Origin: Squalus acanthias
Taxonomy: Eukaryota
Length of the DNA: 64,000 nt
Assembly: GCA_030390025.1 (NCBI GenBank)
Contig: CM059432.1
Location: 31,560,001 to 31,624,000 of the forward strand
Direction: 5' to 3'
The position numbers were made by a program, and so were the translations under genes. Shown here piece after piece: positions 16,101 to 54,700 of this stretch. The notes under the pieces are model-generated. The model had not been told where the DNA came from, ran no database searches, and was given only the letters and a program-made list of their open reading frames with translations. The first letter of the stretch is position 1, and every line of letters starts with the position of its first letter.

Positions 16101-19100
16101 CACTTCCCCTTCTATTGCAGACAAGGTGGCGCACAACTGCTGGGAGCACCAGCAGATGGGTGGAAGGCAAGCCAGACTTCACGGAGCTGGAGGAAGCAGT
16201 TCTCGAAATAATTGGGGGGGCAGTCAAAGAGGCGAGCGGGGAAGTGGAAAGCATTGCAATGGACAAAGAGAAAGAGAGAGAGAGAAGAGAAAAAGAAACT
16301 GCTTCAGCTAATCTTGCCTTGTGGAAGTGCATCTTCAACTTTGATCAATAAGTAGTCCTCAACCACCAAGACAAATACAAAGGATGAATCATGACAAAGA
16401 AGGGTGTTTTCACCCCAAGAAACGTATAGATGAAGAAGGCCCTTCAATCCATTTGATCTCATCATTCCAGAATACCAAACAACCATCTTTCTTTTTACAG
16501 CATTAATGTCAACATGAACAGGACATTGGCTGAATGTTTCATTCAAAGGACGGCACCTATGATAGTGCAGCAGTCCCTCAGTACTGTACGGGAGCGTCAG
16601 CTTAGATTACGGTGTGGGACTTAAACCTACAACCTTCTGACATTGATGTGACAGTGCTACCAACTGAATCAAGCTACAGGAGAAGAGAGAATAGGAAACA
16701 AAAGCAAAGATCGTTTTTTTAATAAAAGGCAAAACACAACAATTCAAACACTGATGCTATCCAATTTGTTTTCCACAGCTGCAAGTATCTACCTGTCTAT
16801 TGATCTGTCCAGTGACTGACAACTTCCAGACAGTGATGCTTCAGCACTGCTGAACGGGTCCAACACCTGTGGTCAGAAAGAAAAGTAAACTTTGAGAAAC
16901 AGCCATCCTTGTGATCTTGCAGTTAAGAGATCTACAGATTAAACAAATTTCTGCTTCCACACTGCAACTACAGATGGGAATAAATGTAGAATAAAAGGTC
17001 AACTGAAAATGTTTGTACCTTTTGACCCTGGAGGGAATCCACTGGAATAAAAGGATGCAACTGTATAAATCTGTAAATTCTTTCTTGATAGATTAAAACC
17101 AGTGCCAATGTTATAGTTACACTCTTACCTTGCATGGGCTACAGTCTCCCCAAGGTATTTCTGTAAATAGTGGAACTACAGCAAGATAACCCAGCAAGCA
17201 GAAAGGTCTTCACCTGTGTGGAAAACATTACCTCTCTCATCCTGCTCTTTGGAGCCATGCACACACAAACTACTTTGGCAACTAAAGAGAATGGTTTTAT
17301 TTCTAATCATCTGCAACGATGAAGGTCCACCCACAACTACGAATGATTTATGGGATAATATGTACACAGGCCATTCATTCTCTGTCAATCAGCTGCATTT
17401 ATTTTGATAAATCTGCACTGCATATATATCACAATTGGTTCATTCTTTGATATGGATGTAATCACACATCACCTACTTGAAGCGAATTCAGTGATCATCA
17501 ACCCCTGCACTGTTACAGATATCAAGCATATTTGGCAATGCAGTGGGTAACGTGGAAGAAGAGTGCAGGAAACCAGTACATTTTGTTACCTAAATATCCC
17601 CTCATTCTTAGTTTTGAGGCCATTTAGGTGTCAGCCGTCGCTCAGTGGTAGCACTCTCATCTCTGAGTCAGAGGTTGCGGGTTCAAATCCCACTCCAGAG
17701 ACGAGCACAAAATCTAGGCTGACACTCCAGTGCAGTACTGAGGGAGTGCTACACTGGTGGAGGTGCCGTCTTTCAGATGAGACATTAAACCAATGCCTTG
17801 TCTGCCCTCTCAGGTGGACATAAAAGATCCCATGGCACTATTCTGAAGCGGAGATGCCGGTGTTGGACTGGGGTGGACAAAATTGAGAGGTCGCACAACA
17901 CCAGGTTATAGTCCAACAGTTTTATTTGAAATCACAAGCTTTCGGAACTATCGCTCCTTCCTCAGGTGAAGTAAATTGGATACAGAATCGTCAGAGCATA
18001 TATAGATGGAAAAAAAAGCATGTGTACTTTACAATTGCAGACCAATAAATTAAATCATCCTGACTATCTGCCGAGGTGTGATAAAGTTAATTAAGTCAGC
18101 CAGGAAGGTACCACATCAAAAGACATAGCAAGATACAACTGAGACAATGAGGTGAAGTCGCAGGGGTTCTAACGTGTCAAAAGCTGCCGTCTGTATGTAA
18201 AACGAAAAGCTTTAAAAAAAAAAATTTACTTTTTTACTGGGAAAATTTTTACTTTTTTACTGGGAATCACATCTGTGAACAAGCTAACGACGACTCGAGT
18301 CCGGATCACGTCATGTATCGTGACATAAACGATCTTGGGTTTATGTCACGATACATGACGTGATCCGGACTCGAGTCGTCGTTAGCTTGTTCACAGATGT
18401 GATTCCCAGTAAAAAAGTAAAAATTTTCCCAGTAAAAAAGTAAATTTTTTTTTTTAAAGCTTTTCGTTTTACATACAGACGGCAGCTTTTGACACGTTAG
18501 AACCCCTGCGACTTCACCTCATTGTCTCAGTTGTATCTTGCTATGTCTTTTGATGTGGTACCTTCCTGGCTGACTTAATTAACTTTATCACACCTCGGCA
18601 GATAGTCAGGATGATTTAATTTATTGGTCTGCAATTGTAAAGTACACATGCTTTTTTTTCCATCTATATATGCTCTGACGATTCTGTATCCAATTTACTT
18701 CACCTGAGGAAGGAGCGATAGTTCCGAAAGCTTGTGATTTCAAATAAAACTGTTGGACTATAACCTGGTGTTGTGCGACCTCTCACTATTCTGAAGAACA
18801 GGGGAGTTCTCCCCGGTGTCTTGGTCAATATTTATCCGTAAACTAACATCACTATTACAGATTATCTGGTCATTATCTCATTGCTATTTCTGGGGCATCA
18901 CTGTGCTCAAATTGGCTGCTGTGTTTCCCTACATTAAAACAGTGACTCTTAAATGTGTTCAAGTTTTCATTAGAAATAAGGGGCAGAGGAAATCATCACG
19001 AATGCATTTACAATAAATTACGCAGAGGAATTTTCGTCCCACTGCTTATGGTTGCTTCTTATATATTTATCAACTGCCATTGATCATGCTCAAAACAACA

Positions 19101-22100
19101 TAATGCTGTTTCAATTCTATTCAGTAACTTTGATTCCAGATCACAGTGTAAACTTGGCTCTGTTGATAACACTCTTGCCTCTGAGTCAGTGGATTATGGA
19201 TTTAAGCCCCAGGATTTGAGCTCACAATCTAGGCTAACACTTCAGTGCAGTACTGAGGTGTTGCTATATTGCCGGAGCTGCTGTCTTTCAGATAGCATTT
19301 GTCTGTTCAACTAGTTCAAGTGGATATTAAAGGTTCCACTGCATTATTCAAAAAGCGGGGAGTTCTCCTGCTGTTTCGGCAACACACCGGCTTCAAACAC
19401 CACAATAAACAGATCAACAGGTCCTCCATGTCATTTGCTGTTTGTGCTATTTACAAATTGGCTGCTGCATTTGCCTACATAACAACAGTGACTACACCAC
19501 TTCCCACCATTTGCCAATCTGAGTAATTACCTTTAACCTCTACTCCCTGTTTTGTAGCCAGCTTGCTATCCATTCTGCTACTATTCCCTTGACTTCACAT
19601 GTTCTGACCTTATTCATGAGTCTACTATGCGGTACTTATCGAAGACTATTTGGAAATCTAAATATACTACGTCTACTGAGTTACCCTTATCTACCCTTTT
19701 TGTTACTTCTTCAAACAATTCAGTAAGGTTGGTCAAGCATGACGTTCTCTTTTGGAATCTGTGCTGAATACTCTATTATAGTTTCAGTTTCTAGGTGTTC
19801 TAGATAAATCTGCTATGTATATAGAGAGACTAAAATCAATTAAACAAACCCTACAATCATTGCTTATCCAATCATGTGAGCTAACTCCCACTTCCCATTC
19901 CCTCTAACCCACCCTCAGTGGCTGCTCTTACAGTCACTATGTCCCTGCCCTCCTAAACACCATTTAACACCTCCCACCCTGCTTTCCAAAGCCCTTCTCT
20001 TTCATTATACTTTCCTCCCTAATTCTCCCAATCTCTTTGCTCCCCCTCACCCTCTTGGTTTCCGCTTTTGTCCTCTGTGCTATAAAGCACCAAGATGATT
20101 TTCTGTATCTGAGAGATACAAGATGCTATTTAATCACTGGTCTGTCTGTTAATAGTGGCAGAGAAAAAATGGGAATTGGTAAGCAGTAACTCATCAAATT
20201 TGTAGGGGCCGATTTTATGATATTGCACGTCCTACGGGGAGTACATCTCTGGGTTTCAGGGGCACACCCATCATGATTTTCCATCCATTTAATTTAATAA
20301 AAGGAAATAATGGGGTGCATGCCTGAATTCCCAGCAGCCAAAGCACCTTGCTGCAAACGCAATTTCATAAAACTGGCAGTGTTGTGAGGGGACAAGTCTA
20401 AGAGAAGGTGTACTCAGATTAAATCAGAAATAATCTTGATAAACTGCTCACATTTCAATCATGTGGTCTAATTTTTCCATGTAATGCACTGCAGACTGCA
20501 CGTCGCCTTACATTATAAAAGCTGAATATCGACATTAAGTACAAACCCTTCCAAACCTGAAAGTGAAGTAAAGTAAAGGGCTGGATTTTCAATGACCCGT
20601 GGAGTCGGGTTTGGAGGGGGGGGGGGGGTTAAAGTTGCAGATTCGGGGGTCCCAACCTCATCCCGACTCCATCCCGCCTCCATGCCAGTTTCTCTGGCGG
20701 CGGGTACCCGACCTGGTCTGAGACCCGACTCCCCGAGGCGGGAAGGGATTAGTGACAATTAACTGCCTGTTAACAGGTAGTTAACAGGCAGTTTTTTGCA
20801 TAATCCCTATTTTCAAAAGAAAAGTGTGGGCTTCCCGACAGGTGGCAACCACTCCAAGTTATCGGGGCGGGCCGTGGGTCTGCAGGGGTTGGAGGGGTCG
20901 ATATATCCGGTGGGCAGGTGAGTGATGGGTGCATGTGTGCAGAGGTAAGTGTGTAAGGTAAGTGCGAAGTGTTGGAAAAAGTTTCACTTACCTTAACTTC
21001 CTCCTGCAGGTGTCAGCCCTTCAGTTCTCGGGAGTTAGAAATCTCACCGGCACAGAAAGCAGGAAAGCCGTGGACCTGTCAAAAACAGCAGCCTTCTATT
21101 TTCTGTGCTGGAATGATTTCTAACTCAGCCTGAAAGGAAGGACTGAAGTTAGAAATCATATTGTGAGTGTTTCACAGCTTCACAGAGCTGTCAAACGCTG
21201 ATATTTCATCTGTCAAAAGCTCTTGACAGATGAAATGTCAGTCTGTGACGTCACCTGTTGCCGGGTGGCCCTTAATTGGCCTGCTGAGCCCACTGGGCGG
21301 GCTCAACAAGGTCAATCAAGGGAAAATACAGTGGGTTGGCCACATCTCGACGGAGGCGGGTTCACAAGCCAGAATGTGTGATTCCCGACCCCAACCCGAC
21401 TCCAACTTCAAAATCCAGCCCAAAGAGTCCGCTGGAAATAATGTTGAGGCACCACAGCAGAATTCCAATGACCATACAGCTATAGGACGAGCGTTCATCC
21501 CCACACAGTGGGGGTAATTTCTGCTTTGGGCGATAGTGCAAAACAGGCGATATTGGATCAGCAACCCATTATACATTTCTTCCGATTGAAGACAATGGAA
21601 ATTAAAATCGGGAAAGATGTGTTAAAATCAGAAAAAAATTAAAATCAGGTGGCTGATCCGATATTGCCTGTTTTACACTATCAACCAAACTCGAAATTAC
21701 CCCACGTGAGTTTTTATCAAAATCCCTTCCTCAGGGTCTCACCCGATATATTAACCTATGTTTTTCTTGCAAATCTTGGCTTTTTTTTTAAATTTGTTCC
21801 TGGGATGTAGGCTTGTGGTGAAGGTACTCCCATAGTGCTGTTAGGGAGGGAGTTCCAGGATTTTGACCCAGCGACGATGAAGGAACGGCGATATATTTCC
21901 AAGTCAGGATGGTGTGTAACTTGGAGGTGAACTTGGAGGTGATGGTGTTCCCATGTGCCTGCTGCCCTTGTCCCTCTAGGTGGAAGAGGTCGTGGGTTTG
22001 GGAGGTACTGCTGAAGAAGTCTTGGCGAGTTGCTGCAGTGCATCTTGTAGATGGTACACACTGCAGCCATGGTCCGCCGGTGGTGGAGGGAGTGAATGTT

Positions 22101-24725
22101 TAAGGTGGTGGATGGGGTCCACCATGGGTGGTGGATGGCTGACCTACTGTGTAATTCCAGCATTTACTGCTTTAAGACAAGAATATGTAGGACATACAGT
22201 TCTTCTCATATAATCATTATTGCATCAAGAAATTTACTTTCACCGGATATAAACGTGTGTCGCCAGCCTCTGCGTATAGTGCAGAGTGATCTGGCAGGTA
22301 GAATGACCCTTACGTTTTGCTCCAAAGTCTCTGGAATGAATTCTCCCTCACTATGGATGCTGGTGTAAGATCCTTGACGTGCAAACTGCTGCTGTCCGTC
22401 AGGGACGCTCCCAGGAGGAGGCGAGCTACGACCAGTATGCAGGGAACCTGTGGCAATTAGAACGAATGAAAAAATATTGAGGAGCTTACTTGCTTTTATG
22501 AAAAACTTTTGCAATAAAAAAACCCCACCAGTGTTCAGTCTGAAGATCTCCCCAGTGACACACATGCTTGTTACTCTGCTTATGTTAGAGGTGTTAATCT
22601 GGTTTGATGTGCAGCGTAGATTCACCAGAATGATACGGGGGGGGGTTAAAGGATTAAATTATGAGGACAGGTTGTATAAGCTTGGCTTGTATTTATATTC
22701 CATTGAGGGGTGATCTATTTGAGGTGATTAAACTGATAAATGGATTCGATAGGGTTGATAAGAGAATCTATTTCCTCTGGCGCGGGAATCCAGAACAAGG
22801 GTGCACAATCTTAAAATTAGAGGTAGGCCATTCAGGAGTGAAATCAGGAAGCACTTCTTCACACAAAGGGTGGTGGAAATCTGTCACTCTCTTCACCAAA
22901 AGACCGTGGAATGCTGGGGCAATTGAAGCTTTTAAGACAGAGATCAATAGATTTTTGTTAGGTAAGGGTATCAAGGGATATGGAACACAGGCGGGTGAAT
23001 GATTTGAGGTATAGCTCGGCTCTGATCTAACTGAATGACAGAACAGGCTCGGGGGTTGAATGGCCTATTCCTGTTCCTATGTTATAGATTGCAGGGGAAT
23101 TGACTTCTCTATGTGGGGGGTGCAGGGTGAAGATTAAGCTCACTGATGCTGTCTACAGCATCATAAATAGTGCATAAAGTGACCGCCAGAACCAATTAGA
23201 AATACTTGGAGATAGCTTCCACTGGCGTTTCCGCAGGACCACCACCAGGAGCACTGGCAGCCAGATTTTCTATCCGCAGGTGAGCAGTGTGGTCTGCCCA
23301 ACTTTGCGTAGGCTAATGGTAAAGTTGCATCGATTGCTGCAACGGGAAAGTAACTAGTTACTTTCAGAAGACTGCGTACGTGTGCTTGCTCATCCGTTGC
23401 TTGCTGGTGCTGCAGAATCAGGCCCATGACATAAAACAGGTCTGAGTTGTAAGGGGTAAATTTGGGACAGATAATAAAAATAACCTACATTTATATAGCG
23501 CCTTCAACATAGAAAAAACGATCCCAAGGCACTTTACTTAGGCATAAAGAAAACGGAAGGAAGGTGACCAACAGCTTGGTCAAAGAAGTGGGTTTTAATA
23601 AGGAGGAGAGGGAGGTGAACGTATTTAGGGGAGTATTCCAGAGAGTGGGACCTAACTAGCTAAAGGAGGGATGTCAAGGAGTTTGGAGAGGGGGGTGCAG
23701 AGAGGGTGTAAGGGCATGGAGGGATTTAAAGACAAGAATAACATTTTTTAATTTGAGGCACTGGAGGACCAGGAGCAAATACTGTTCAGCGATATCCGAA
23801 GTGATGGCAAGTGAGACTTAATGCAGGATAAGATATCAGCAGCAGAAGGGGTTAATTAATAACCTTGTAGTAAAGGTGATTTAGGGAAGAGTGACCATAA
23901 TATGATAGAATTTTATATTGAGTTTGAAAGTGATTTAGTTAAATCTGAAACTAGGATCTTCGATCTAAACAAAGCAAACTACGTAGGTATGAGGGACGAG
24001 TTGGCTAAGGGAGATTGGGAAACTACATTAATAGGTATGACAGTAGACAAGCAATGGCTAGCGTTTAAAGAAATAATACATAATTTACAACAAATATACA
24101 TTCCTTTAAGGCACAAAAACCCCACAGGAAAACTGGTCCAATCGTGGCTAACAAGAGAAGTTAAAGATAGTATTAGATCAAAGGAAGAGGTTTATAGTGT
24201 TGCCAAAAAAGTAGTAAGCCTGAGGATTGGGAGAATTTTAGAATTCAGCAAAGGAGGACCAAGAAATTGACAAGGAAAGAGAAAAAAGAATATGAGAGTA
24301 AATTAGCAAGAGACTTAAAAATAGATTGTAAACGTTTCTATAGGTATGTAAATAGGAAGAGATTAGTGAAAGTAAACGTGGGCCCATTAGAGGCAGAGAC
24401 AGGAGAAATTATAATGGGCAATAAGGAAATGGCAGAGACATTAAACAAATACATTGGGCTGGATTTTGATACTGGGGCGGGTTGGGGTCGTGTCATCCGC
24501 ATTTCGTGTTATCCACCCGCCTGCAATTGGATGTGGGAGATTGATGCAATTTTCACTTAATTGGGCAATTGAGTTCCAGCATGTGGGAACCCATGAACCA
24601 ATTAGTAGTTTTAGTCTGAAAGTCGCCTCTGATGATGTTATCATTGCAGGTCAGAGACTGCCTGGTTTCAGAGATTGCCTGGCCTTTGCTGTGAGAGGAC
24701 CTGGATGTAAAATGAGCAGCATCTC

Positions 24726-24762: not shown

Positions 24763-27700
24763 GAGAGAGAGAGGAGAGAGAGAGAATTTGTTTTGCAACC
24801 AAGTCCTCCCAGGCAGTCTCTGAAGACATTCAATGCAGCAGCATCAGAGGCGACTTTCAGACCTAATACTACTACTACCTTCATCACAATACTACTACTA
24901 CCTTCATCACATCTCCGTTGTAATAGTGGACCTGCAGCTGATAGTCAGCTATCCACTTGTGCTCCCGCCAGGTTTCACTGGCGTGTTTCACATCAGGCGT
25001 ACTTCACGTCGGAAAAGGGTTAAACTAGCTAAAATGTTTCAAAATGGCATTACAGAGCCAATTTAGGGCTTGTTAAGGGCTTTAATGGCCTCTCCCGCCT
25101 CTTGGAGGCGGGACGGAGTCGGAACCCCGCGACCGATTTTGTCAAAATTGCGTAGAGGCGGAATGGAGTCGGGATGGGGTCGGGACCCCCGAATCTGCAA
25201 CTTTAACCCCCCACACGCCTCCAAACCTGACTCCACGGGTCATTGAAAATCCAGCCCATTGTATCTGTCTTCACGGTAGAAGACACAAAAAACATTCCAG
25301 AAATAATGGGGAACCAAGGGTCTAGAGTGAATGAGGAACTGAAAGAAATCAGTATAAGTAAAGACATAGTACTGGAGAAATTAATGGGACTAAGTGGCGA
25401 CAAATTTCCTGGACCTGATGAGCTGCATCCTAGGGTTTTAAAAGAGGTAGCTGCAGAGATAGTGGATGCACTGGTATTAATCTTCCAGAATTCCCTAGAT
25501 TCTAGAACAGTCCCCAAGGATTGGAAGGTAGAAAACATAACCCCGCTATTTAAGAAAGGAGGAAGAGAAAAAAACAGGGAACTATAGGCCAGTTAGCCTG
25601 ACATCAGTAGTAGGAAAAATGCTAGAATCTATTATTAGGGATGTGATAGATAGTAGATTGGCGGTTAGGATCAGATCAGCCATGATCTTATTGAATGGCG
25701 GAGCAGGCTCGAGGGGCCGATTGGCCTACTCCTGCTCCTATTTCTTATGTTCTTATGTTCTTATGTGGTAACAGGGCACTTAGAAAATCATAATATGATT
25801 AGGCAGAGTCAACATGCTTTTCAAAAAGGGAAATTCTGTTTGACAAATCTGTTAAGAGTTTTTCGGAGATGTAACTAGTAGGATGGATAAGGAGGAACCA
25901 GTGGATGTGGTGTATTTGGATTTTCAAAAAGCATTCGATAAGGTGCCACACAAGAGGTTATTACACAAAATTAGGACTCATGGTATTGGGGGTAATATAT
26001 TAGCATGGATTGAGGATTGGTTAATGGACAGAAAACAGAGAGTAAGAATAAACGGGACTTTTTCAGGTTGGCAGGCTGTAACTAGCGGGGTCAGTGCTTG
26101 GGCCTCAGCTATTTGCAATTTATATTAATGACTTAGATGAAGGGACTGAGTATAATGTATCCAAGTTTGCTGATGATACAAAGTTAGGTAGGATAGTAAG
26201 CTGTGAGGAGGACGCACAGAGGCTGCAGAGAGATATAGACATGTTGACTGAGTGGGCAAGAACATGACAAATGGATTACAATGTGGGGAAGTGTGAAGTT
26301 AGCCACTTTGGTAGGAAAAACAAAAAAGCAGAATATTTTTGAATGGTGAGAGGCTGGGAAATGTTTGCACTCAGAGGAACCTGGGTATCCTTGTACATGA
26401 ATCACAGAAAGTTAACATGCAGGTACAGTAAGCAATTAGGAAAGCAAATGGTATGTTAGCTTTTGTTACAAAGGGATTAGAGTATAAGAATAAAGAAGTC
26501 TTACTACAATTATACAGGTCATGATGCGGAGATGCCGGTGTTGGACTGGGGTGGACAAAAATGAGAAGTCGCACAACACCAGGTTATAGTCCAACAGTTT
26601 TATTTGAAATCACAAGCTTTCGGAGCTTACGTGGCCCCTTCATTTAAATGTAGTCGTCTGCCATTGTAAGTTACACATGCATTGTTCTCTATCTATATAT
26701 GCTTTGTCGAGTCTGTATTTCTTTACTTCACCTGAGGAAGGGGCCACGTAAGCTCCGAAAGCTTGTGATTTCAAATAAAACTGTTGGACTATAACCTGGT
26801 GTTGTGCGACTTCTCATTTTTTTACAATTATACAGGGCATTGATGAGGCCACACCTGGAGTACAGTTCTGATCTCCTTACCTAAGGAAAGACATAGAGGG
26901 AGTGCAGCGAAGGTTCACTGGACTGGTTCCTGGGATGAGGGGATTGCCCTATGAGGAGAGATTGAGTAGACTAGGCCTATATTCATTAGAGTTTAGAAGA
27001 AGGAGATCTAATTGAAACATATAAAATTCTTAAGGGGCTTGACAGGGTTAATGCTGGGAAAATGTTTCCCCTGGCTGGGGAATCTAGAACACGAGGTCAC
27101 AGTCACAAAATAAGGGGTAGGCCATTTAGGACTGAGATGAGGAGAAATTTCTTCACTCAAAGGGTTGTGAATCTTTGGAATTCTCTATCCGTGGATGCTC
27201 AGTCGTTGAGTATATTCAAGACAGAGGTCGATAAATTTTTGGGAACAAAGGGAATTAAGGGATATGGGGATAGTGCGGGAAGGTGGAGTTGAGGTAGAAG
27301 ATCAGCCATGATCTTGTTGAATGGTGGAGCAGGCTTGAAGGGCCAAATGGCCTACTAATTTTGGACAAGTAGGTGTTCGCTATGAAGTATTTCTTTACAC
27401 AGAGGAAGTTCAGCAGCTGCTGCATGTTGCCAGGAAGGGTAGTTGTAGTGAGGACACTGGAATCATTTAAAAAGCCACAAGCTGTAATAGGTGATGGTAG
27501 GGTTGGTATTCACTTTTTCTATCCTCAAGCTATTTATTTACTTGGGTATGTGGGCATCGCTGGCAAAGCCAGTATTTATTGCCCATTTCTAGTTGCCCTT
27601 GCTCTGCTCCTTTAAGACCTTTCTAAAAACCCACATCTTTGACCAAGCTTTCGGTCACCCTCCTAATGTTTCCTTCTTTTTGCTGAGCATCTGTGGAAAA

Positions 27701-30700
27701 TTTTCAGTGTTCTTGTTCCATGTGCTACAGCGCCCAGAGTTAATCAGTAATTTTAATGGATTTTTATTTTAAAGAAAAAAAGCCCCAGACAGAAACATTT
27801 ATTCTCTTTCTGTCAGTAGACATGCCATTTTCTGATATGAAGTGTTGTTATGAAAATGCTGTTGAAAGTCTTGGGAATCAAAAGAATCAGTGTTAACTTA
27901 TCAGTAACAAGCTTTCCTGTCAGACTCTAGCCTGACTGTTAAACCATTAAGGGAAATCTAGGAGGACATTACTTACTCCCAGTCCTCCCCACCCATGCTA
28001 CTGTGGAGTGCATTTGATAACTCCAGTCCTTGGGCTGACAGTCCAGTAAGGTCATGGAGCATTCAGATGTACTGTCTTTCTGAGGAGACATTAAACAGAG
28101 GACTCGTCTGCCCTCTCAGGTTGATGTAAAAGATCCCATGGCACTAATCTGAAGAAGAGCAGTGGAGTCCTGGCCAACCTTTATCCCTCAACAAACACCT
28201 TAAATACAGATTATCTGGGCATTTATCACATTGCTGTTTTTGGGACCTTGCTGTGCGTAAACTGCCGACAGCGTTTTCTATATTACAACAGTGACTACAC
28301 TTCAAATGCACGTTATTGGCCGTAAAGTGCTTTGAGATGTCCTGGGGTTGTGAAAGGCGCTATATAAATGCAAGTCTTGCTTTTCTTTCGAAATGAATAC
28401 ATAGCCGTTCTACTGCTTATATATAGCAGATAATATACAGAAAGGTTCACTTTAAGTGGATTTTTTTTGACCAAAAATTAGAACTAATAAAATGATCTTC
28501 TGTAAGAGTTAAACTGTGCACTCTGCACTCACAAAAACCAGTAGCACTTCAATGTCAAGACTGCTTTCAGACGTACTGAGGTACACAAACCTTTGTGGGA
28601 ACTAGTAGAGGAAGTTAGCCTAAGCTGCCAATGTTGCAGGAAGCGCATGATTAACAAAAACCAACTGGAGTCAGTCTTCTGATAACAAAAAATGTGTCTT
28701 TGGCTGTAGACGTAAATATCCATCTTTGAGGGTAAACCCGTTAATTTAAAACTGACTCTAGCACAAAATAAGCTCCAAACAAAAATAATGAATTTCACAG
28801 CTCCCCCATCAACTTCCTGGGTAAATGCACTGGCCCCAAATGTACTCATATTGGTGGGTTCCTGCCGTAACTCCGGAGGGATCCAGTGGAACTATCTGAA
28901 ACTCCGTCCGGACCCAGATGCATGGGATCCCAGCCTACGCGGAAGTTTGTAGTGGCCTTGTTTGATGCCCCTGACCCCCTCCCCACACAAGGCCACTGCT
29001 GTGAAAAGATTAGCGCCAAGGCTGGAGGCTTGTCACACTGGGAGTTCCTGCTTCCTCAGTCTTAGTGGGATTCGGCCAGATGCCAAATGAGATGAGGTGC
29101 ACCAGCTTCCAGAAGGGCGCAAGTGAGCCCCATCAAGTGAGGAGGGTGGGTGGCCAGGCCAGGGGTGGATCTAGACCCCCAAAGATGGCTGATCATTTTT
29201 TTTTTAATTATTATGTTCCCATCTCTCCCCGGCGACCCCTCCCCCATCCACGCCCCACCTCGGGACTCCTAAGTTACGGCAGAGTTTCTGCAGTCTTTGC
29301 CAGGTGGGGGGGTGTTGCAGATACATCCACACCGCACCGAAGACCCGCGCCCGCAGAGTTCTCCGCCTGAACCCTTACAAATTTTGATGGGGTCAGTGGT
29401 GGAGTTCCGTGATTGCCGAGAACCTGCCCGTGCAAATTTTCAGGCCCGTTGTGCATTTTGGGAATGCCTGCTCTATGCTGAGTTAGTTGATCTCAGCCAG
29501 CCCAACAGTTGGGGCAGGGGGGGGGGGGGGGCGGAGATGGTGGCAGGGGGCGCTACAATTAACCTCTGACTCTGGGCTATGAGGAGGAAAATAAAACAAT
29601 AAACAGCCACTTTTCTTGCTCCTTGTCACTATCCAATGTCTCTTTCTAGAAAGTGTGGATGTGTGTGAACATCAGTTGAGGACAGGACTGAACACTACTG
29701 TAATACCTTCCCTAGCCAAATAGCCTACCACACTCAGTGTTTCGGCTCACACATGAAGAATGGACACTTGGCCAAGGTACCAGAGTAGCGACCTAGGAGC
29801 CAAAATTCAGGGGTCTTCAACAATAACTACAACTGCAACAACTTCCATTAATGTAGTCCCTTTAATGTAACAAATGTCCAAAATCGCTTTACAAAGAGAG
29901 AGTGAACACCAAGTAGGAGGGGGGATCAGGGGATGTCGCAGAAAGTGCGGTTGAAGAGGATTATTTTGAGGAGATTTTTGAAAGTGGTGAGAGCTGTGAT
30001 GAGGAAGGGAATTCCACAGTGCAGAGGCCTTGTTAACCAACGGTGGAGCGGGGTTCAGGCAGAAAGGTGCACAGAAGACCAGAGCCAGGGGCGTGCGCTG
30101 GAGAAGGCTGCAGAAATAGTGTGTGGCAAGGCCATGAAGGGAGTTATAAACTATGACATTCAAGGTCAAGGAGCCAGTGGAGGTTGGCGAGGACAGGGTT
30201 GCTGGGTACATGGGAATTAGTGCCATATAGGACTTGGACAACAGAATTCTGGATGAGACAGGATGAGACTGACAAAAATAATGACGTTAATGAAAAAGGG
30301 GCTGAGAACAGTGGTGCTGCCCATCTCAGTACAGGGTGCTGTGCAACAGTGAAGATGGGTTTGATTCCCTTTCTGTTGAATTCTCAAATCTCTAGACATT
30401 CAACTGGGGTAAGGAAAAGGGAGGAAAAAACCACAACTGAGAAATCATCACGGGTCTTCCCTACAACAACAACTTGCATTTATATAGCAGTAGTAAAAAT
30501 TTGTAATGTAGTAAAACGTCCCAAGACGCTTACTCATTTATACCTGCAGTTTCAGAAAATAGGCCCAGGAGTAGGTTGACTATCCGCGCTCGCAGTCAAG
30601 GGAAAAAGTGAGATCAGCTAATCTAGAACAGGCTGGCAACCACATTGGGTCCTTCTTGGTCAGTACGGCTCAGCTATTCACTGGATAAACCCGGAGAGCC

Positions 30701-33700: not shown

Positions 33701-36700
33701 ATATTTTTCTCTCCTTCTTTTTCCTTCTCTTCCTTACCTCTGCCACCATTTTCTTTTCCCTCCCATGCCTGTAGCATTGGAGCCTGCCGTACAGGGAAAC
33801 TGCATAGCAACATGGGAAAGACAGGGGAGCCAGGATTTCAAAAGGAGCCAAGCAGTGAAGTAAATATTGACAAACAGGCTGATGCTAAATGTTGGTTGGG
33901 ACATTCTTGACCATCTGGTGTGATGGTTACACTGGTGACCGCACAGACATTATGCGCATTGTGCAGAAAGCTAATAACTAACAAATTAAGCACGCAGAGC
34001 ATTAGAAAAATGTACCTCATTGTTAATAAAGTGTAACTCCATTTGCTGTCCAAAAGCATCATTGACCTTTTGTAGCATGTCTTTCAACTTTACTGGTCTT
34101 GGGAACTGCATGATCCTTTTAAAAAAAGAAATCCTCAGATTACATAAAAGATTACAATCCCTTAATGAAGAAGCAAGAACCTCATAGCAGTTTTTGGGAA
34201 TCTAAAATAGCTTTAAGGTCCATCAATGTTCTCCCTCCCTTCACCTCCTGGTATCTCAAACAATAGCCACCCTCTAGGTCTAGGTCAAGTGGTCATTCTT
34301 CCTAATGTGAGCCAATACAGTGAATGTTTGCAGGTTTTTCTTAAGGCTTGTTTCTTTTTATAGAAAGGAATTTCCCTATTTCTGAATTCTGATCATTCTC
34401 GCCAGACTGTACAGATTCTACAGACAGGGCATAACTACAGATTAATCAAGTATACAGATTGCTAGAAAAGCTAAGGGGGATGGGTGAGGAAATCACTGAC
34501 AAAGCCAATCCTGGCCTCACCTAACATCCACACGCATGAACATCCTTTCGAGCAGGGAGCTCTGTTCAGTGATCAGTTGTGTAAAACCAGATGTATTCCT
34601 TCCCCCCTCTACCGCCACCCACCTGCATTTCCCCCCGGCCTAGCAGGGAGATACAGAGGTGAATTGCAGCTCCCCCAATGCCACTCTAGTTGAAATTAAC
34701 CAACTCAACCTTGGACCTTGCAAGTGTGTAGTCCATATCACACCGGGCAATGTTATGCATTGTCATTAGAGGAAGCTTTTTTAAAAATTGATTTCTCACA
34801 TAATTTTGCTAATTGATTTACTTTTACAAATTTCCATTTAGAAAGCCAAAACCAGTGAAGTCCTTACATACAGAAATCTGGTCAAAGTCATAATAAATGA
34901 AACAAAAGACTTTTTGTTAAATAATCTAAAAATATAACTTGCCTTTTTTCTTCTTCATGCTCAAACTTGATCCTCACCTCACTCTGCAAAAACAGAGAAA
35001 TGATTACCAGAACCAAAATGGTAGAAAAAATAACTTATACTACTTCACCAAGATCATGGATGCATAGAATCATAGAAGATAGGAGCAGGAGTAGGCCATT
35101 CGGCCCCTCTAGCCTGCTCCGCCATTCAATGCGATCATGGCTGATCATCCAAATTCAGTACCCTGTCCCTGCTTTCTCCCCATATCCCTTGATCTCTTTA
35201 GCCTTAAGAAATATATCCAACTCCTTCTTGAATCTATTTAATGAATTGGCCTCTACTGCCTTCTGTGGCAGAGAATTCCACAGGTTCACCACTCTCTGGG
35301 TGAAGAAATTCCTCCTCATTTCTGTCCTAAATGGCTTACCCCTTACCCTTAGCATTGGCCATCCCTGCTGGTTTGACACTGCTGGGACAAGCTATCAACA
35401 ACGACTTGCAGAGTTCTTGGAGGGTTGTAAGGCTGGAGGAGGTTACTGAGATAGGTAGGGGCGGCAGAGTTTTGGATGAGCTAAAGTTTAAGTTAAAGCA
35501 TCGAAGATGGGATGCCGACCAGGAGAACATTGGAATAGTCGGATTTCAGCAGCAGGTGGACTGAGGCACGGGCAGAGATGGCCGATATTATGGAAGTGGA
35601 AGTACGTGGTCTTCAAGGAATATCATTGAAGTTTTCTGGCAGAGGTAAGATACCTCCACCCACCAGCCGCGCGTATTGGTAACATGCCCGTGATTGTTCG
35701 AAATGCACTCACCAATGACATATACTGGGAAAGTTTATGTTTATAAATAGGTTTGAACAGACAACTGGATGACAAGTTAACTATTCCAGTGCTCGCCTGG
35801 CTGGCCTCCCATCTTCCATCCTCCATAAACTGGAGCTCATCCAAAACTCTGCTGCCCGTATCCTAACTCGCAACAAGTACCGTCCACCCATCACCCCTGT
35901 GCTTGCTGACCTACACTGGCTCCCAGTCCAGCAATGCCTCAAATATAAAGTTCCCATCCATGTGTTCAAATCCCTCCACAGCCTCAGCCCTCCCTATCTC
36001 TACAACCGCATCCAACCCTATATCCCTCCGAGAACTCTGCGTTCCTCCAAATCTGGCACAGACATGTTGGGCCAAATGGCCTCCTAATGTGTGGTAAATT
36101 TCTATGATTTTATGAATCCCAGTGAGCTCTGTGTAGTTGAGAGGTGGCTATGTGGTGAAGAGCTAGGTCCTGAGGATGCAGGAGATAGGTCTCAGGGAGT
36201 AGACAAGCTCAATGAGACAGAGAAGGAGATGGGGGAGAAGCTACAGAGTGATATGAGGAGAAGTTGGCAAAGTTAGGAGTGCTCTCCTTGGAAAAGAGAA
36301 GGTTAAGAGGTGACCTAACCTTCAAGATGATGAAGTTTTGATAGAGTAGATAGACAACAATTATTCCCTCTGGCGAGTGTGTCAATAACTAGAGGTCATA
36401 GATTCAAAATCATTGGAAAAAGATCTAGAGGGAAGATGAGGAGAACTTGTTTGACTCAGATTTGTCGGGATCTGGAACGCACTACCTGAAAATCGGAAGC
36501 TGATTCAATAAATAATTTTAAAAGTGATTTGGACAGGTACTTGAGGATAAGGAACTTACAGTGTTACGGACAAAAAGCAGGGGTGTGGGACTAAGCACGA
36601 CTGCTCTTTCAAAGAGTCAGCATAGGTATGATGGGCCTCTTGTGCTGTAGGACAAAGCAGCCCGCTTGATCAGCACCCCATCCACCACCTTAAACATTCA

Positions 36701-39700: not shown

Positions 39701-42700
39701 TACTCATTGGAGTTTAGAAGAATGAGAGGGGATCTTATTTAAACATATGGGGGTAGAAATTAGGTCGCGCCCCATTTGGGGCGCAAATATCGTCTGGACG
39801 CAAATATTAGCGCCTGGCGCTAATTATCGGCACCGACTGGAAACTTCACTTTTACCGCCCCGGGAGGTGAGTGGAGCGCTAAAGCAGGCGCTGCACACCT
39901 GTCTTAAGGCGCAAAGGCCGAGCAGTGAGGCGCTAACTCAGAGCGCTGGCGAAGCTCATGTAATGTCAGTCAGCAATGGAACACACACACAATGGCACGG
40001 GCCAGTTCTTAAAGGGGATGGTTAATCTTGCTTTCCATCCACATCCTGATTATTTCAGCCTTGAATCTCGGCCTGGAGAGACTTGCACATCAAATGTGCT
40101 GGAAAGAACAATGGAGAGTACCAGGCAAAGAGCTCAGAGTGCAGCTCCCACAGTCTCTGCTAAATCGATACAAGGAATGGCAAATCAAAATGAACCTGCA
40201 AAGTGCTGCTCAGTACCCAAAACTCCTTCACACAACGTTGAATCTCTCCAGAAGTCTCTCCCTCTCTCTCTCAGAATGCGTAGTTCAAAAATGCCACCAA
40301 CAATAAAAGACAGGAAGAGGCCCCCTTTAAATAGCGCCCCCCCCAGCCCCACAGCGATTGATAGCGTTCCAGTCTTCTGGTCGTTGGAAGCGCCAGGCGG
40401 TAAGGCAGGGGGCGCCACTCAATTTCCGCTCCGGGGCGCCACAAGGGCGTTGCACCATGGAATGACGTCACAATCTGCGCGCGCAGGTGGTCGCAGCGGT
40501 AAGTTTTAGCGCCGCCGCACAATGTCAAGTTAAGTTCCCGAGCGGCGCAAACATCGCTGCGCCCGGGCGTTGGCGGCTTTGCGCCCCATTAGCGCCCTCT
40601 TAAGGCGCTAACGGGAGGCGCAACCAACTGAATTTTTACCCCATAAGATTCTGAAGGGGCTTGACAGAGTAGATGCAGAGAGGATGTTTCCCCTCGTGGG
40701 GGAATCTAGAACTAGGGGGCGTAATTTCAGAATAAGGGGGGCACCCTTTTAAAACGGAAATGAGGAGGAATTTCTCCTCCAGAGGGTTGTGAATCTTTGG
40801 AATTCTCTTCCCCAGAGAACTGTGGAGGCTGGGTCATTGAATATGTTTACGGTGGAGATAGACAGATTTTTGAATGGTAAGGGAATCAAGCGTTATGGGG
40901 AGCGGGCAGGGAAGTGGAGTTGAGGCCAAGATCAGATCTTATTGAATGGCGGAGCAGGCTCGAGGGGCCAAATGACCTACTCCTGCTCCTACGTCTTATG
41001 CTCTTATGTGAGGGCAGAGGTAAAGATGGAAAGGTTTAGAGAGGGAGTTCAGAGAGTAGGGCTGAAGGCTCTGCTGCCAATGGTGGAATAAAAGGACATG
41101 GGGATGCATAGGAGTCAAAGGAATGAAAAACAAGGGCTGGGACATAAAGCTGGAGGAGTGGGCAAGCTATGGTGGGGCAAGGGCATGGAGGGCAATGGCT
41201 TTGTAAACAACGACTAGAAGTTTGAATTCAAGGAGCCAATGGGGGTCAGCGAGAATGGGACAAAACAAGTCTTGCAGTTTATATTTCTAACTGGAAATGA
41301 TGGTGAAGGAACACAGCAACAAGAGTAAGCCATTCAACTCCTCCAGTCTGCTCCGTCATTCAATTAGGTCATGGCAGATCTGTATCTTAACTCCATCTAC
41401 CTGCCTTGATTCCATTACCCTTAATACACTTGTCTAACAAAAATCTACCAATCTCACATTGACCCTTTCACTTATCAGCGGCTGCAGCTTTATAATGTAA
41501 AAGGGTCTTTGAATAAAGTACTAGTGGTCACTGGTCTGTCACTGGTGGTGTGGACAATTTGAGGTGGTGAACTAAGAGTACAACACCAGACACGTACTAT
41601 ACATCGAAACAGATTGCTTTGCGTGTGATTTTTCCTGCAGCATAATGGGCTCAGTTCACTGAATTAGCCCGGTAACAACACTAGCAAGGTTTGCTGACTT
41701 AAACCAAAACTGTCCTGGTCTTTCACACAAATCTTACCTGTTTGTTTTTGCTAATATCATAATCCAGCAACTTTCGGCACTTGCCCAAAGCAGCCAGATC
41801 TTTCATAATCGAATTCAGGGCTTCCTGTTCATCTGGGAAACAAAAAACAAAACAAAAAATCAAGTTCACGTGAAGGTTACTGACACATTTTTGTCCATTC
41901 AGCTGAAACAAAATAAATCTTTCAAACTTAAATAAACTCAATTAGAACCAAGCAGTCTGTTCAACCTCCAAAATGTTGCTTTCCTATAATACAAGAATTA
42001 TTTTGAAGCGCGTTGAAGGTCATTAATTAAGTGGCCTGCATCAAAAAGGATGTTGACAACATGCAAGTGCCGTGCAAGTCACTTTCCCAATAACTGGAGG
42101 AGTTTGAGTGATCCACAAGTTCCAAAGAACTTGCATCTATTTCCCAACTTTCATGTCGCAATGCCCCCGAAGCATTTTACAGCCAATGAAGTACTTTTCT
42201 TTAAGTATGATCACTGCTGTAATGTAAGGAAACATGGCAGCCAATTAATGCACAGCAAAGTCCCACAAACAGCAACGTGCTTTAGTGATGCTGTTAGAGG
42301 AATAAATATTAGCCAGGACTCAGCTCGTCTTCATATAGTGCAATGGGGGGGATGGGGGTCGATCGCGGGGAGGGTCAGTGGATCGCGGGAGGGTCAGTCG
42401 ATCGCGGGAGGGTCAGTGGATTGCGGGGAGGGTCAGTGGATCGCGGGGAGGGTCAGTGGATCGCGGGGAGGGTCAGTGGATCGCGGGGGGAGGGTCAGTC
42501 GATCGCGGGGGGGGAGGGTCAGTCGATCGCGGGGGGAGGGTCAGTCGATCGCGGGGGGAGGGTCAGTCGATCGCGGGGAGGGTCAGTGGATCGCGGGGAG
42601 GGTCAGTCGATCGCGGGGAGGGTCAGTCGATCGCGGGGAGGGTCAGTCGATCGCGGGGAGGGTCAGTCGATCGCGGGAGGGTCAGTCGATCGCGGGGAAG

Positions 42701-45700
42701 GGTCAGTGGATCGCGGGGGGGAGGGTCAGTCGATCGCGGGGAGGCTCAGTCGATCACGGGGTGGGTCAGTCGATCGCGGGGAGGGTCAGTCGATCGCGGG
42801 GAGGGTCAGTCGATCGCGGGGAGGGTCAGTGGATCGCGGGGAGGGTCAGTCGATCGCAGGGAGGGTCAGTCGATCGCGGGGAGGGTCAGTCGATCGCGGG
42901 GAGGGTCAGTCGATCGCGGGGAGGGTCAGTCGATCGCGGGGAGGGTCAGTCGATCGCGGGGAGGGTCAGTCGATCGCGGGGAGGGTCAGTCGATCGCGGG
43001 GGGAGGGTCAGTCGATCGCGGGGGGGAGGGTCAGTCGATCGCGGGGAAGGTCAGTTGATCGCGGGGAGGGTCAGTCGATCGCGGGGGGGGGGTCAGTCGA
43101 TCGCGGGGAGGGTCAGTCGATCGCGGGGAGGGTCAGTCGATTGCGGGGTGGGTCAGTCGATCGCGGGGAGGGTCAGTCGATCGCGGGGGGGAGGGTCAGT
43201 CGATCGCGGGGAGGGTCAGTCGATCGCGGGGAGGGTCAGTCGATCGCGGGGAGGGTCAGTCGATCGCGGGGAGGGTCAGTCGATCGCGGGGAGGGTCAGT
43301 CGATCGCGGGGGAGGGTCAGTCGATCGCGGGGGGGAGGGTCAGTCGATCGCGGGGAGGGTCAGTCGATCGCGGGGAGGGTCAGTCGATCGCGGGGAGGGT
43401 CAGTGGATCGCGGGGGGGAGGGTCAGTCGATCGCGGGGTGGGTCAGTCGATCGCGGGGAGGGTCAGTCGATCGCGGGGGGGAGGGTCAGTCGATCGCGGG
43501 GGAGGGTCAGTCGATCGCGGGGAGGGTCAGTCGATCGCGGGGAGGGTCAGTCGATCGCGGGGAGGGTCAGTCGATCGCGGGGGGGGGTCAGTCGATCGCG
43601 AGGAGGGTCAGTGGATCGCGGGGAAGGTCAGTCGATCGCGGGGGAGGGTCAGTCGATCGCAGGGGGAGGGTCAGTGGATCGCGGGGAAGGTCAGTCGATC
43701 GCGGGGAGGGAGGGTCAGTCGATCGCGGGGGAGGGTCAGTGGATCGCGGGGAGGGAGGGTCAGTCGATCGCGGGGAGGGTCAGTGGATCGCGGGGGGAGG
43801 GTCAGTTGATCGCAGGGAGAGGGTCAGTGGATCGCGGGGAGGGTCAGTCGATCGCGGGGAGGGTCAGTCGATCGCGGGGAGGGTCAGTGGATCGCGGGGA
43901 GGGTCAGTGGATCGCGGGGAGGGTCAGTGGATCGCGGGGAGGGTCAGTCGATCGCGCGGGGAAGGTCAGTCGATCGCGGGGGGGAGGGTCAGTCGATCGC
44001 GGGGAGGGTCAGTGGATCGCGGGGAGGGAGGGTCAGTGGATCGCGGGGAGGGTCAGTGGATCGCGGGGAGGGTCAGTCGATCACGGGGAGGGTCAGTGGA
44101 TCGCGGGGGGAGGGTCAGTGGATCGCGGGGGGGGAGGGTCAGTGGATCGCGGGGGGGAGGGTCAGTCGATCGCGGGGGGGAGGGTCAGTGGATCGCGGGG
44201 AGGGTCAGTGGATCGCGGGGGGAGGGTTAGTGGTTCGCGGGGGGGGGGCGGTCAGTGGATCGCGGGGGGAGGGTCAGTGGATCGCGGGGGGAGGGTCAGT
44301 GGATCGCGGGGGGAGGGTCAGTGGATCGCGGGGAGGGTCAGTCGATCGCGGGGGGAGGGTCAGTGGATCGCGGGGAGGGTCAGTCGATCACGGGGAGGGT
44401 CGATCGCGGGGAGGAGGGTCAGTCGATCGCGGGGGGAGGGTCAGTCGATCGCGGGGAGGGTCAGTCGATCGCGGGGAGGGTCAGTCGATCGCGGGGAGGG
44501 TCAGTCGATCGCGGGGAGGGTCAGTCGATCGCGGGGAGGGTCAGTCGATCGCGGGGAGGGTCAGTCGATCGCGGGGAGGGTCTGCCGTTTACGGGAGGCG
44601 GGTGTCAGCCGATCGCGGGAGGTGTGGGAGTGGGGATTGCAGATGGCGGCAGACAATTTACTTGAGGGGCCGGGGGAATCACTCCTGCTCCTCCTGGCCT
44701 ACAAGCAGTGCTGGAAAAGGTTGCTGGATCCGGAAGCCCAAGCGGCCGGGTTCTACTGCAGTACTAATATAGGAAAATTGTGAAAAATCTGTCATTGCAC
44801 AAGCAAACTGTAATAAACACATGCCAACTTCACGGTTGGATGAATTACTCACCCAACCCTCTACATTTCAAAAACAGAAAGGAAAGTCCCTTTTACTTAG
44901 TCACTGTCATAACTTTTCCCTAGAATAAATGCTTTCTCTGCATTATTTATCAGCAGAAATTCAGAAAAAACAGTACCAAAAGAAGTAGGCAAGCAACAAC
45001 AACAAAAGCTTGCATTGACATAGTAAGACGTCCCAATAAAGACAGGAGACAATAATTGACACCGAGCCAAAGAAGGAGATATTAGGATGGTGTCCAAAAC
45101 CTTGGTCAGAGGTAGGTTGTAAGGAGCATCTTAAAGGAGAGAGGTGGAGACGTGGAGAGGTTTAGGGAGAGATTTCCAGTGCTTACGGCCTAGACAGCTG
45201 ACGTGGGGATGCACAAGAGGCCAGATTTGGAGGAACTCAGAGTTCTCAGACAGTTGTAGGGCTTGAGGAGGTTACAGAGACAGTGCAGAGCGAGGCCATG
45301 GAGTGATTTGAACACCATGATGAGAATTTTTAAATAGAGGCATTGTTGAACTGGAAGCCAATGTAGGTCGGTGAACACAGGGGTGCTGGGTGAACTTGGT
45401 GCGAGTTTTTTTTTAATTTGTTCATGGGATGCAGGCATCGCTGGCAAAGCCAGCATTTATTGCCCATCCTAATTGCCCTTGAGAATCATAGAATCATACA
45501 GCATAGAAGCAGGCCATACGACCCATCGAGTCTGCGCCGGTGCTTTCGAAGAGCAATCCAGTTAGTCCCAATCCCCCTCTCTTTCCCCATATCCCTGCAA
45601 TTTTTTTTCTTTCAAGTATTTATCCAATTCCCTTTTGAAGAAACAGAGATATATTTCCAAGTCAGGATGGTGTGTGACTTGGAGGGGTTCTTGCAGGTGA

Positions 45701-51700: not shown

Positions 51701-54700
51701 TACAATTTAAACATTTTTTCAACAGGTTTATCTTTTTTAGATACTTTAAAGAAAGGTAAGTTTATGTTTAGCACCGTTAAAAAGTATAATTAATATTTTC
51801 AAAAATTTAAATTTTTGTTTGAAGTAGTTAATTTATGTAACTTATAATTATTTTTAAAATGTGATTTTTTTTTTAAATTTATTTGAAGTTTAAGTGCGGT
51901 TTTGGGGCCGATCTCCATTCATAGATTTGACAGGTCTTCCTGTCAAATCTATGAATGAAAATGCCCTGCTCCGATTGGCTCTCCATGGCCCACGTGATCC
52001 CAGGGGACGCTTCGAACTAACTGCGCCCCTGGGATACGCAAGCACTGCGCGCCGGCAGCTGGAGGAGGCCCAGGACCCGAAGTCCTCGTGGGCCCAAAGC
52101 ACAACTGCAGGCGCGGTAGGCAAGTACGCGCGCGATGCTTGCACCCGCAGGAAGCCGGAAAGCCGAATTTCTGGCCCAATGTAAACTTGTCCTGCTGTAA
52201 TTGCACTCTCCTGCCAGCGTGGTACTGCAGTTCCTTCACTGGTAGTAGAGTGTATTTGCGGTGTGACAAGCTTACATAAGTAGTTCCATTATAAAGATTG
52301 CACAAAGGAATTTATAATGGAAAAAGTTGACAGGAAGTGCATACTGACGCAAGATTATTAATATATTCACCTTATCTCATCTCTCGCAAATGTCCTTTAG
52401 CATTTCACACAATGGGTGACTGAACTGCAGTGCCTGTTGCTGTATAGGCAAACACGGTAGCCATTATGGGCACAGCAAGATCCCACAACAGCTATGACCA
52501 GTTAATCTGTTTTCACATGACACAGGTTGAAGGAGGAATGTTGACCAGGCCTGTAGGAGAACTCCTAGCTCTTCTTCAAATCTTTTAACATCCAACCAGA
52601 ACAGGCAGATGAAATTTCAGTTTCAAATCTTATTCAAAGTAGGGCACCGCCAACAATGCAGTAACTCTCGAACTTATGAGTTGAAATCTTTGGTAGCAGT
52701 TATGGGAGAAAAATTGGGTTGCTTTGCGCCTCCCGTTAGCGCCCCCAGCGGGGCGCAAAGCACCTAGCGCCTGGGCGAAGCGCCACTAACGCCTCCTGCA
52801 AAATTCAGCGGGAGGTTAGCGGCAGCGGTAGCTGGTAGCGCCCCGCGGCACTGCGTCTCTGGCGATGACGTCATCACCGTGCGCAGCGCCCCGGCCGCAA
52901 ACTTCAGTTGCGCCCCCTTGACCTATCGCCGCACGCTATGTCCAACAGGGTCAGGTTGCCGTTTTTGCAGCCGCGGCGGCTCAAGTTAAAGGGCAGGTGT
53001 CGGGCGCCCATTTTTTTTTTTGGCCGACTGCCAGCACCTGCCCCCTTCCCCTTTTTTATTCGGGGTGCCGGCCGCAATCGCTCAGCCCGGCACTCCTCTT
53101 GAGTGCCGGGCTGCTTTCCCGGCACCCCGCTCCCCGGTGGTCCAGCAGGGCCCCAGTGCGCGCAGTCAGGGGAGGGAGGCCTGCAATACCGCGGCGCTAC
53201 GTGCCGATGCACGTGGCGCTGTTGCACGTAGCGCTGCAATATTCACTTGTAGCGTCCCAGGAAGGAGGGGGAGTGCTTCCAGTAGCATCCCGCCTCCTGC
53301 TTGGGGCACTAACTTTTTCGGGGCGCTGGTGAAGTTGGCGCCCCCTTTAATTTTTCCCCCTCTCTCTTTAAACCAAAATGAGTGAAACTTGAATGTGAGA
53401 GATGTGACAAGCATTAAAGTGAGAGAATTTAAAAACTTAAACAGGGAAAAGGAAAGCAAAGAAGTGAATTGCCGAGCTCTAGTTTTCTGAGGTTTAATGA
53501 AGTCTGACAGAGGGATATACATTTAATTTAGAAGATTTTCCATGACTGTCCCTACCCCCATCCCGTTGGGAGGTTGCTATCTTTTAAAATGGGTCCTACT
53601 TCCCATTCTGCTGTTGATATAACAAAGATTTTGGCTTTCATCATTGGTCCTGCAGGATGTGTTCACATTCACTCTTGGGTAAATAGACTACTGTGGAAAA
53701 CATGGAAAGTACTCCAGTCTATGTGTCATAAGTTAATGAAATAAACAGTGACTGAGGTGCAGGGTCAACTCACCCTATAGTTGAATGAACTGTCGACAAT
53801 CACTTGGGCCAGGGACTGGATAATTCTCAATGCGGCATAACTCCCCACCCTCAGGAGAGGTGGGGGGAAATTGGAGGGGGAGGGAGGAGTGTTAATGTCA
53901 TTTAAGAATCAGTAAAAATAGCTTCTAACTAAGGAAAAGTGTAATGAGATGTCCTGTGCATGAAATAGTGAAGTGTTTCAGGACAATAACACCATGTATG
54001 GCATGATCTGGGCTGTGAGAGGAATAGCTTGCTGTGGTCAGGAAGTCAGTCTAGTGGAAATTAATTTGGGAACGGTGAGGGTTGAAAAGAGAAATGTTCT
54101 TAATGCAATTTGGCTCTCATCAGATTTGCTATTAAAAAGCAGGTGGATGATATTTAGTGCTTGAAAGTGATGCAGTCATTGAAAATGCTATGTTGCAGGG
54201 TGAGGTGCTAACCTTTTATTATAGAACACTCTCTTCTCATCTTCCAGGGGTTGTGCCACATTACTGAAACAAAAACTACAGTAAAAGAAAAAAAAACCAA
54301 ACCACACTAGTAGTCTGTATCAGATCATATCTCAAGGTGCTTTATCACTGTTGCATTGGTTTAGGGATGGCACTACGCCGGCCTAACGGTCCTCCATTGA
54401 TATTTTCACCAACCGGCATTGTTCATTAGAAGCCAAGCAGAAGTGAAGTTGGCGAATCGAGCGGCAGCTCCTCAAACAGAACAATGTAATTTGGGCAGTT
54501 TATATTAATAACTGCAGCCAATAGCAAGAGAACCACGTGGTCGCTATCAGCTGTAATTTTTAAACCATCAACATGCTGCATGAGCGAGAGAGCGAGCGTG
54601 TGAGAGAGAGAGAGCGAGAAAGCGATCAAGAGAGCAAGCGAGCGCAAGAGAGCGAGTGAGCAAGAGAGCGAGAGAGAGGGCAAGAGAGGAGGCAAGAAAG

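Follow-up and report, generated by a model that had tools for sequence, protein, structure and literature searches.

A perfect 902-bp palindrome in an intron of a shark MAP3K2/3-type gene as a probable by-product of Penelope-like element (PLE) integration

The locus described here raises the question of how an intron came to hold a 902-bp palindrome whose arms are identical to the last base. Self-alignment of the window (the whole 64,000-nt stretch of DNA analysed) showed that the two arms (17884-18330 and 18339-18785) match perfectly as reverse complements, with 447 of 447 bases paired, and that inward pairing stops at the first base of the 8-bp spacer (18331-18338, GATCTTGG). Both the geometry given in a preliminary description of this DNA (two 447-bp arms around 8 bp) and its statement, made by eye, that the arms are free of mismatches were thus confirmed, with 0 differences in 447. 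A separate repeat search scored the arms as 452 nt at 100%, a figure that includes that search's own end extension. The palindrome is the sole near-100% pair among the 40 longest minus-strand self-matches listed for the window, the runners-up in the same list being pairs of dispersed repeats with 69-93% identity. The CpG observed/expected ratio is 0.92 in the arm vs 0.47 in the window, and GC content around the centre is 30% over 20 bp, 40% over 40 bp and 48% over 100 bp. Within the arm, at 18219-18266, a 23-nt unit occurs twice in tandem after the A11 run.

The palindrome is not the whole of what was inserted. It is flanked by a 13-bp direct repeat (17836-17848 and 18784-18796), and an unpaired tail of 35 nt (17849-17883) sits on the left end only. 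The insertion therefore extends beyond the palindrome coordinates; it measures 935 bp, is asymmetric and lies inside a SINE. When the flanks are joined at the duplication they form a SINE, and three further copies of it in the window can be aligned through the site with 68-80% identity, so that the target duplication and the rejoined SINE reported earlier were both recovered; the same target sequence is found in a minus-strand copy at 12378 that is uninterrupted. We take this SINE to belong to a shark tRNA-derived family. The features of the insertion are as follows.

17642-17848, plus strand: interrupted SINE, 5' part (80% match to the uninterrupted copy 12559-12364)
17836-17848, plus strand: left copy of the target-site duplication, 13 bp of host SINE sequence (repeat comparison, SINE alignment)
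17849-17883, minus strand: PLE tail, 35 nt, at one end only; 3' end of the element RNA and putative reverse transcription start site 1 (same tail in the copies at 26519 and 58304)
17884-18330, minus strand: left arm, 447 bp, element sense in the direction of host transcription (orientation from the hammerhead core)
17936-17965, minus strand: left-arm core of a minimal type I hammerhead (descriptor scan)
18331-18338, plus strand: 8-nt spacer, in frame with the right arm (self-alignment, translation)
18331-18363, plus strand: candidate final 10 codons and stop of a PLE ORF (translation)
18339-18785, plus strand: right arm, 447 bp, inverted copy without tail; its last 2 bases are also the first 2 of the right target duplication
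18704-18733, plus strand: right-arm core of a minimal hammerhead, lying antisense in the host pre-mRNA (descriptor scan)
18784-18796, plus strand: right copy of the target-site duplication, 13 bp
18797-18950, plus strand: interrupted SINE, 3' part (75% match to 28164-28296; 87% to 12346-12301)

The host is a gene of the MAP3K2/3 type transcribed from the minus strand, and two of its exons enclose the insertion.

22314-22447, minus strand: exon on the upstream side of the intron (open frame between CAG/GT borders, 3' end in phase 0)
16793-16866, minus strand: exon downstream of the intron, presumably exon 8 (CAG/GT borders, phase 0 start, open frame)

Because borders, open frames and phase agree between these two exons, the insertion can be placed in a 5.4-kb intron, 983 bp from the downstream exon (about 1.0 kb from the arm edge). 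Furthermore, the exon 34016-34117 matches the PB1 domain, with E values of 3e-10 for human MAP3K2 and 7e-7 for MAP3K3 (6 of 7 sequences listed). The position claimed before, in a minus-strand kinase intron about 1 kb before the next exon, is therefore upheld by exon structure and by the PB1 match; a kinase domain was not found within the window. The sequence of the gene has diverged rather far from human MAP3K2 and MAP3K3, and it could represent a third paralogue. More exons of the same type lie on the minus strand at 41760-41860, 34968 and 1058-1150, besides that at 34016-34117. The same intron also contains three short imperfect inverted repeats (21511-21703, 21190-21249 and 20744-20808; 72-83%), and 20575-21430, a relative of 25144-25260, has the look of a nested element bounded by terminal inverted repeats. 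Elsewhere in the window, long G-rich and GA-rich tandem arrays (42300-44700 and 54500-55900) have open frames in several phases.

One indication of what kind of element was inserted comes from its hammerheads. A minimal hammerhead descriptor found four motifs in the window and none in each of 30 shuffles; one motif lies in each arm of the palindrome (copy A) and one in each of two sibling copies (B and C, see below), with none outside the family. The core consists of CUGAGGA, a bulged A, a 5-bp stem II, GAAA, a palindromic AGCU in place of helix III and a 4-bp stem I, and stem II shows compensatory variation among the three copies. The bulged base, the G10.1-C11.1 pair and the palindromic stub of helix III are described for the minimal hammerheads of metazoan PLEs in the available text of PMC4209133. 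The core gives the orientation of the element: its sense strand is the minus strand in the tailed left arm and the plus strand in the right arm, which makes the unit head-to-head. PLE insertions typically have an inverted, 5'-truncated copy beside the 5' end together with a tail of 30-40 bp (PMC8557442 and PMC3846280, both seen in part; the tail also in PMC11167929), and head-to-head is given as the commonest form of complex PLE insertions (PMC3846280). Four features that characterize endonuclease-type (EN+) PLEs were found here, namely the minimal hammerhead, the one-sided tail, the inverted 5'-truncated copy at the 5' end and the target duplication, and the tails measure 35 nt (A), 38 nt (B) and 51 nt (C) vs the 30-40 bp expected. 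Tail, duplication, a hammerhead in each arm and the published inverted layout thus bear out the PLE origin that had been proposed for this sequence.

Rfam gave no match at the gathering score over the whole window, and the 8 matches obtained for 17600-19000 with E up to 10 were all under the gathering score and included no hammerhead. The stability of the lone hammerhead folds was not significant (z -0.93; z -1.42 to 0.22), the minimum-energy structure of a two-copy cofold was not the dimeric active fold, and exact-pattern scans of viral, metagenome and prokaryote collections returned 0 loci. The 3' end of the element can form a stem of CUGUUGGACU with AGUCCAAC (17858-17918 and the equivalent positions in B and C), which is present in the three tailed copies and not significant vs shuffles; the tail-less end falls in its loop and the tailed end beyond its base. 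As for coding sequence, the translation of the spacer and the start of the right arm reproduced the 10 residues given before, which had been likened to what is presumably a PLE ORF-end motif. As the spacer is in frame with the right arm, the right copy would extend 8 nt further 5' than the left one. The tail of copy C (58304-58317) ends, on the sense strand, in ATG GCT ACT A, which by analogy with A. vaga Pen2a may be a PLE ORF start. That the palindrome is a by-product of PLE integration appears to us very likely, an assignment made from layout, tail, hammerhead and duplication in a copy that holds at most 10 codons. More specifically, we read the locus, with a probability of about 0.8, as a dead, 5'-truncated insertion of an abundant endonuclease-type PLE that was placed head-to-head in one event.

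The two sibling copies in the window allow this design to be compared.

26505-26836: copy B, with a 14-bp duplication, a 38-nt tail, 85-bp identical arms and 95 unpaired nt of the tail-less copy
58292-58474: copy C, with a 12-bp duplication, a 51-nt tail, 17-bp identical arms and 74 unpaired nt, mostly of the tailed copy

A duplication, a tailed copy and an inverted tail-less copy are present in 3 of 3 family members, with duplications of 13 (A), 14 (B) and 12 bp (C). Across the three copies, the tailed ends are spread over no more than 14 nt and the tail-less ends over about 7 nt, and these two clusters are 35-50 nt apart. The tail-less copy extends further 5' in two of the three (by 8 nt in A and 95 nt in B), the reverse being the case in C. 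Given that the siblings share the layout with unequal arms, the near symmetry of A would be one outcome of routine integration. Where copies differ, the two arms of a copy agree with each other, as seen between A and B in stem II of the hammerhead and at 17889. The visible self-complementarity at the junctions of B and C amounts to at most 1 base, and the inner junction of B (26641-26650) is a perfect 10-bp palindrome, CATTTAAATG. ATT adjoins the tail-less end in all three copies; it also occurs at position 4 or 5 of all three duplications, against a window background of 0.083 for each and with the position picked post hoc. Copy B lies in a LINE remnant.

Of 24 sequencing runs listed, 5, from 2 samples of one organism, contained at least half of the sequence words, and no RNA run was among those listed as containing them. 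Contigs from 4 of the 24 runs were compared with the stretch 16900-18345 (left flank, tail, left arm and spacer). Contigs piled up over the whole arm in two DNA runs of one organism, and in one of them (X1) the summed depth was 0.6-4.9 million vs 5.7 on the unique flank, a sum that is not a copy number and indicates a very abundant repeat. At 17889 both arms of A carry the minority contig letter, the other letter accounting for 2.7 of 3.9 million depth in X1 and 3.3 of 4.5 million in X5. Since both of these runs have other letters than the window at 17239 and 17289, they may represent a different haplotype. The run of a second organism (X6) showed 15 differences in 508 over the flank; its inner arm (17978-18271) was nearly without cover and its outer 130 nt very highly covered, and we did not take the missing cover as evidence. 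Contigs of X1 and X5 also join SINE position 17848 straight to the tail-less end of the element (17883-17889), at 10-14 times the unique depth (64 and 79 in X1, 220 and 211 in X5) and with a short side of just 22-23 letters. This hints at other loci with the element in the same SINE position and in opposite orientation, and at a possible preferred site.

How one event could write two identical arms in opposite orientation is best considered from what is described for the PLE of the anole. According to the available text of PMC11167929, both strands are nicked and extended by the purified protein, which has a preference for ATT and is a predicted dimer; reverse transcription begins at two neighbouring internal sites in the RNA, and these sites set the tail. 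Two-strand priming is not itself applied to the inverted layout in that text, and PLE integration is called unresolved there and in PMC8557442. Given that the palindrome is a PLE by-product, we lean towards priming at two nicks. The GIY-YIG endonuclease would nick the target twice, 13 nt apart, and the 3' end at each nick would prime reverse transcription on RNA of one source element. At the left nick this would begin at the outer start site, so that the tail is copied. Synthesis from the right nick would use the inner start site, which lies about 35 nt inward, and would involve a 2-nt match in sequence. The two cDNAs would stop 8 nt apart, end repair would join them and the gaps would be filled. 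Two-nick priming predicts a tail on one arm, arms that are identical because they derive from a single template, and either arm as the longer one, as seen in the three copies on which this argument is based. It has to account for two independent cDNAs of about 450 nt whose ends differ by no more than 8 nt, which requires a common stop such as the RNA 5' end or a stall; our guess is that a shared RNA 5' end is the reason, and microhomology may be hidden at the centre of A. We found no paper stating two-nick priming for the inverted PLE layout in a search that covered few subscription journals. As a tentative generalization, young shark copies could record PLE integration as such, with a dimer priming both staggered nicks at two start sites of one RNA, the outer reverse transcriptase displacing the inner cDNA, and the cDNAs being end-joined.

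The same element could instead have produced the palindrome by self-priming, if the first cDNA (or a copy from antisense RNA) folded back at a short palindrome and copied itself, endonuclease resolution left a one-sided tail and small central deletions perhaps followed. This is the published reading of head-to-head PLE units in PMC3846280, with the tail as a product of endonuclease resolution (PMC8557442), as far as the available parts of both go. It directly explains identical arms around an 8-nt loop, and near-equal arms such as those of A are what a fold-back should give; the spacer of A starts with GATC, the 10-bp palindrome at the junction of B is the kind of feature taken as self-priming in PMC3846280, and the ATT beside every tail-less end also agrees with it. 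However, the unpaired centre of A and of B is part of the copy that lacks the tail, the tail being carried by the opposite arm. Without a second priming or a later deletion, copying one arm from the other cannot produce this arrangement. Moreover, the junction of C shows no visible self-complementarity, and in vitro the tail corresponds to two reverse transcription start sites (PMC11167929, in its available part). We consider self-priming less likely than two-nick priming, of which it is the strongest competitor.

An origin of the identity after insertion is much less probable. In that case an older insertion would have had its arms homogenised by arm-to-arm gene conversion, and it is true that arm identity alone dates the event loosely: 0 of 447 differences sets an upper bound of 0.67% on arm divergence, which at 7e-10 mutations per site per generation (a rate with a wide interval, for a shark of another species, in the available text of PMC10587355) is an upper bound of about 4.8 million generations. 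The earlier judgement that the insertion is very young is weakened to this bound, even though the intact duplication and the undepleted CpG do favour a recent event. The same two observations stand against conversion, as arm conversion would preserve neither the 13-bp duplication nor arm CpG, and B and C likewise have identical arms and intact duplications. Conversion, which had been offered as the other explanation of the perfect arms, is unnecessary, because the layout is documented for PLEs and shared by both other copies in the window. An assembly or chimeric-read artefact has hardly any probability left. No contig crossed the fold among the 15 of 399 joints and 24 of 1721 loose ends listed, for a stretch without the right arm; but a fold-back read would mirror the flank too, and the one-sided tail, the 13-bp duplication, the resumed SINE and the two siblings of the same design make an artefact very unlikely.

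Some other classes of sequence were considered and set aside. A MITE or foldback DNA transposon does not fit a tail of 35-51 nt at one end, ends varying by up to 14 nt and arm lengths that differ between copies. Non-LTR retrozymes are head-to-tail tandem repeats with hammerheads (10.64898/2026.07.22.740005, in its available part), whereas the copies here are head-to-head with at most one hammerhead per strand. A PATRR-type cruciform site was rejected on the 8-nt spacer and on the GC content of the centre given above for 20, 40 and 100 bp, and a miRNA precursor because the best Rfam match, MIR6450, scored 46.8 bits vs a gathering score of 70 and is due to the hairpin alone.

With regard to consequences, computed folding of the insert as pre-mRNA gave a single hairpin with 450 pairs (-836.8 kcal/mol), so that the predicted duplex of about 450 bp in the kinase pre-mRNA, some 1 kb before the next exon, is supported by the model. 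Long intronic duplexes are edited by ADAR. Probably, as far as the computed fold goes, the long hairpin is edited and spliced out with the intron, and the palindrome has no function of its own. With the antisense arm transcribed first and the hairpin formed, the sense hammerhead would be buried, as had been suggested; its sequestration would matter little, since single minimal hammerheads gave no cleavage in the available text of PMC4209133, and the anole PLE hammerhead needs protein (PMC11167929, likewise in part). The suggestion of a fragile site through cruciform extrusion is weakened by the 8-nt spacer and by a centre with 48% GC over 100 bp. In the available part of PMC1851657, a 9-bp spacer plus four nearby mismatches abolished extrusion and instability of a 600-bp AT-rich human palindrome; that test palindrome carried mismatches, and the one described here has none. 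Single-stranded DNA hairpins during replication are possible. The pre-mRNA hairpin so close to an exon is also what could speak for a selected regulatory element of the kinase gene (an editing substrate, a small-RNA source or a splicing control), a reading that together with the cruciform fragile site we hold to be very improbable. The inverted layout is the default of the family and so requires no selection, the short spacer strongly lowers cruciform extrusion, and the hammerheads compared above either did not cleave singly or depended on protein.

As a single locus this is of small weight, one more truncated PLE insertion in a head-to-head layout already documented, real but ordinary. Its value is that of a clean integration record, in which the intact duplication can be read base by base, as can the two ends and the central joint. 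If two-nick priming is true, features seen over the many copies would discriminate it from self-priming: arms unequal in either direction, private variants common to both arms, and blunt junctions. By leaving long, perfect inverted repeats in introns, the family would furthermore be a standing source of dsRNA and possibly of replication-hairpin instability.

Several known systems resemble the insertion, as far as the available parts of the respective sources allow comparison. It is like the complex insertions of EN+ PLEs (Penelope/Poseidon, Neptune and A. vaga Pen2a; PMC3846280, PMC8557442) in its inverted 5'-truncated copy, one-sided tail of 30-40 bp, duplication and head-to-head order; it is unlike them in comprising the terminal ~480 nt only, with near-equal arms (8-nt difference) that are fully identical, and its duplication is 13 bp vs 8-10 bp in the rotifer examples. 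With PAc (Poseidon, Anolis carolinensis; PMC11167929) it shares two end positions defining the tail, an AC-rich stem-loop at the end, the ATT target and a hammerhead near the end. However, the ORF of PAc starts in stem II of the hammerhead, whereas here no ATG is present there and the sole candidate start is at the outer end of the C tail. The cores are like the minimal hammerheads of metazoan PLEs (PMC4209133) in the bulged base, G10.1-C11.1, palindromic 15.2-16.2, short stem I and location on opposite strands, at a distance of about 770 bp vs the 100-700 bp described for opposite strands. Finally, human PATRR11/22 (PMC1851657) are likewise long genomic palindromes, of similar or greater size, but the palindrome described in this work differs from them in its centre, which is not AT-rich (48% GC over 100 bp), in its 8-nt spacer and in its retroelement origin.
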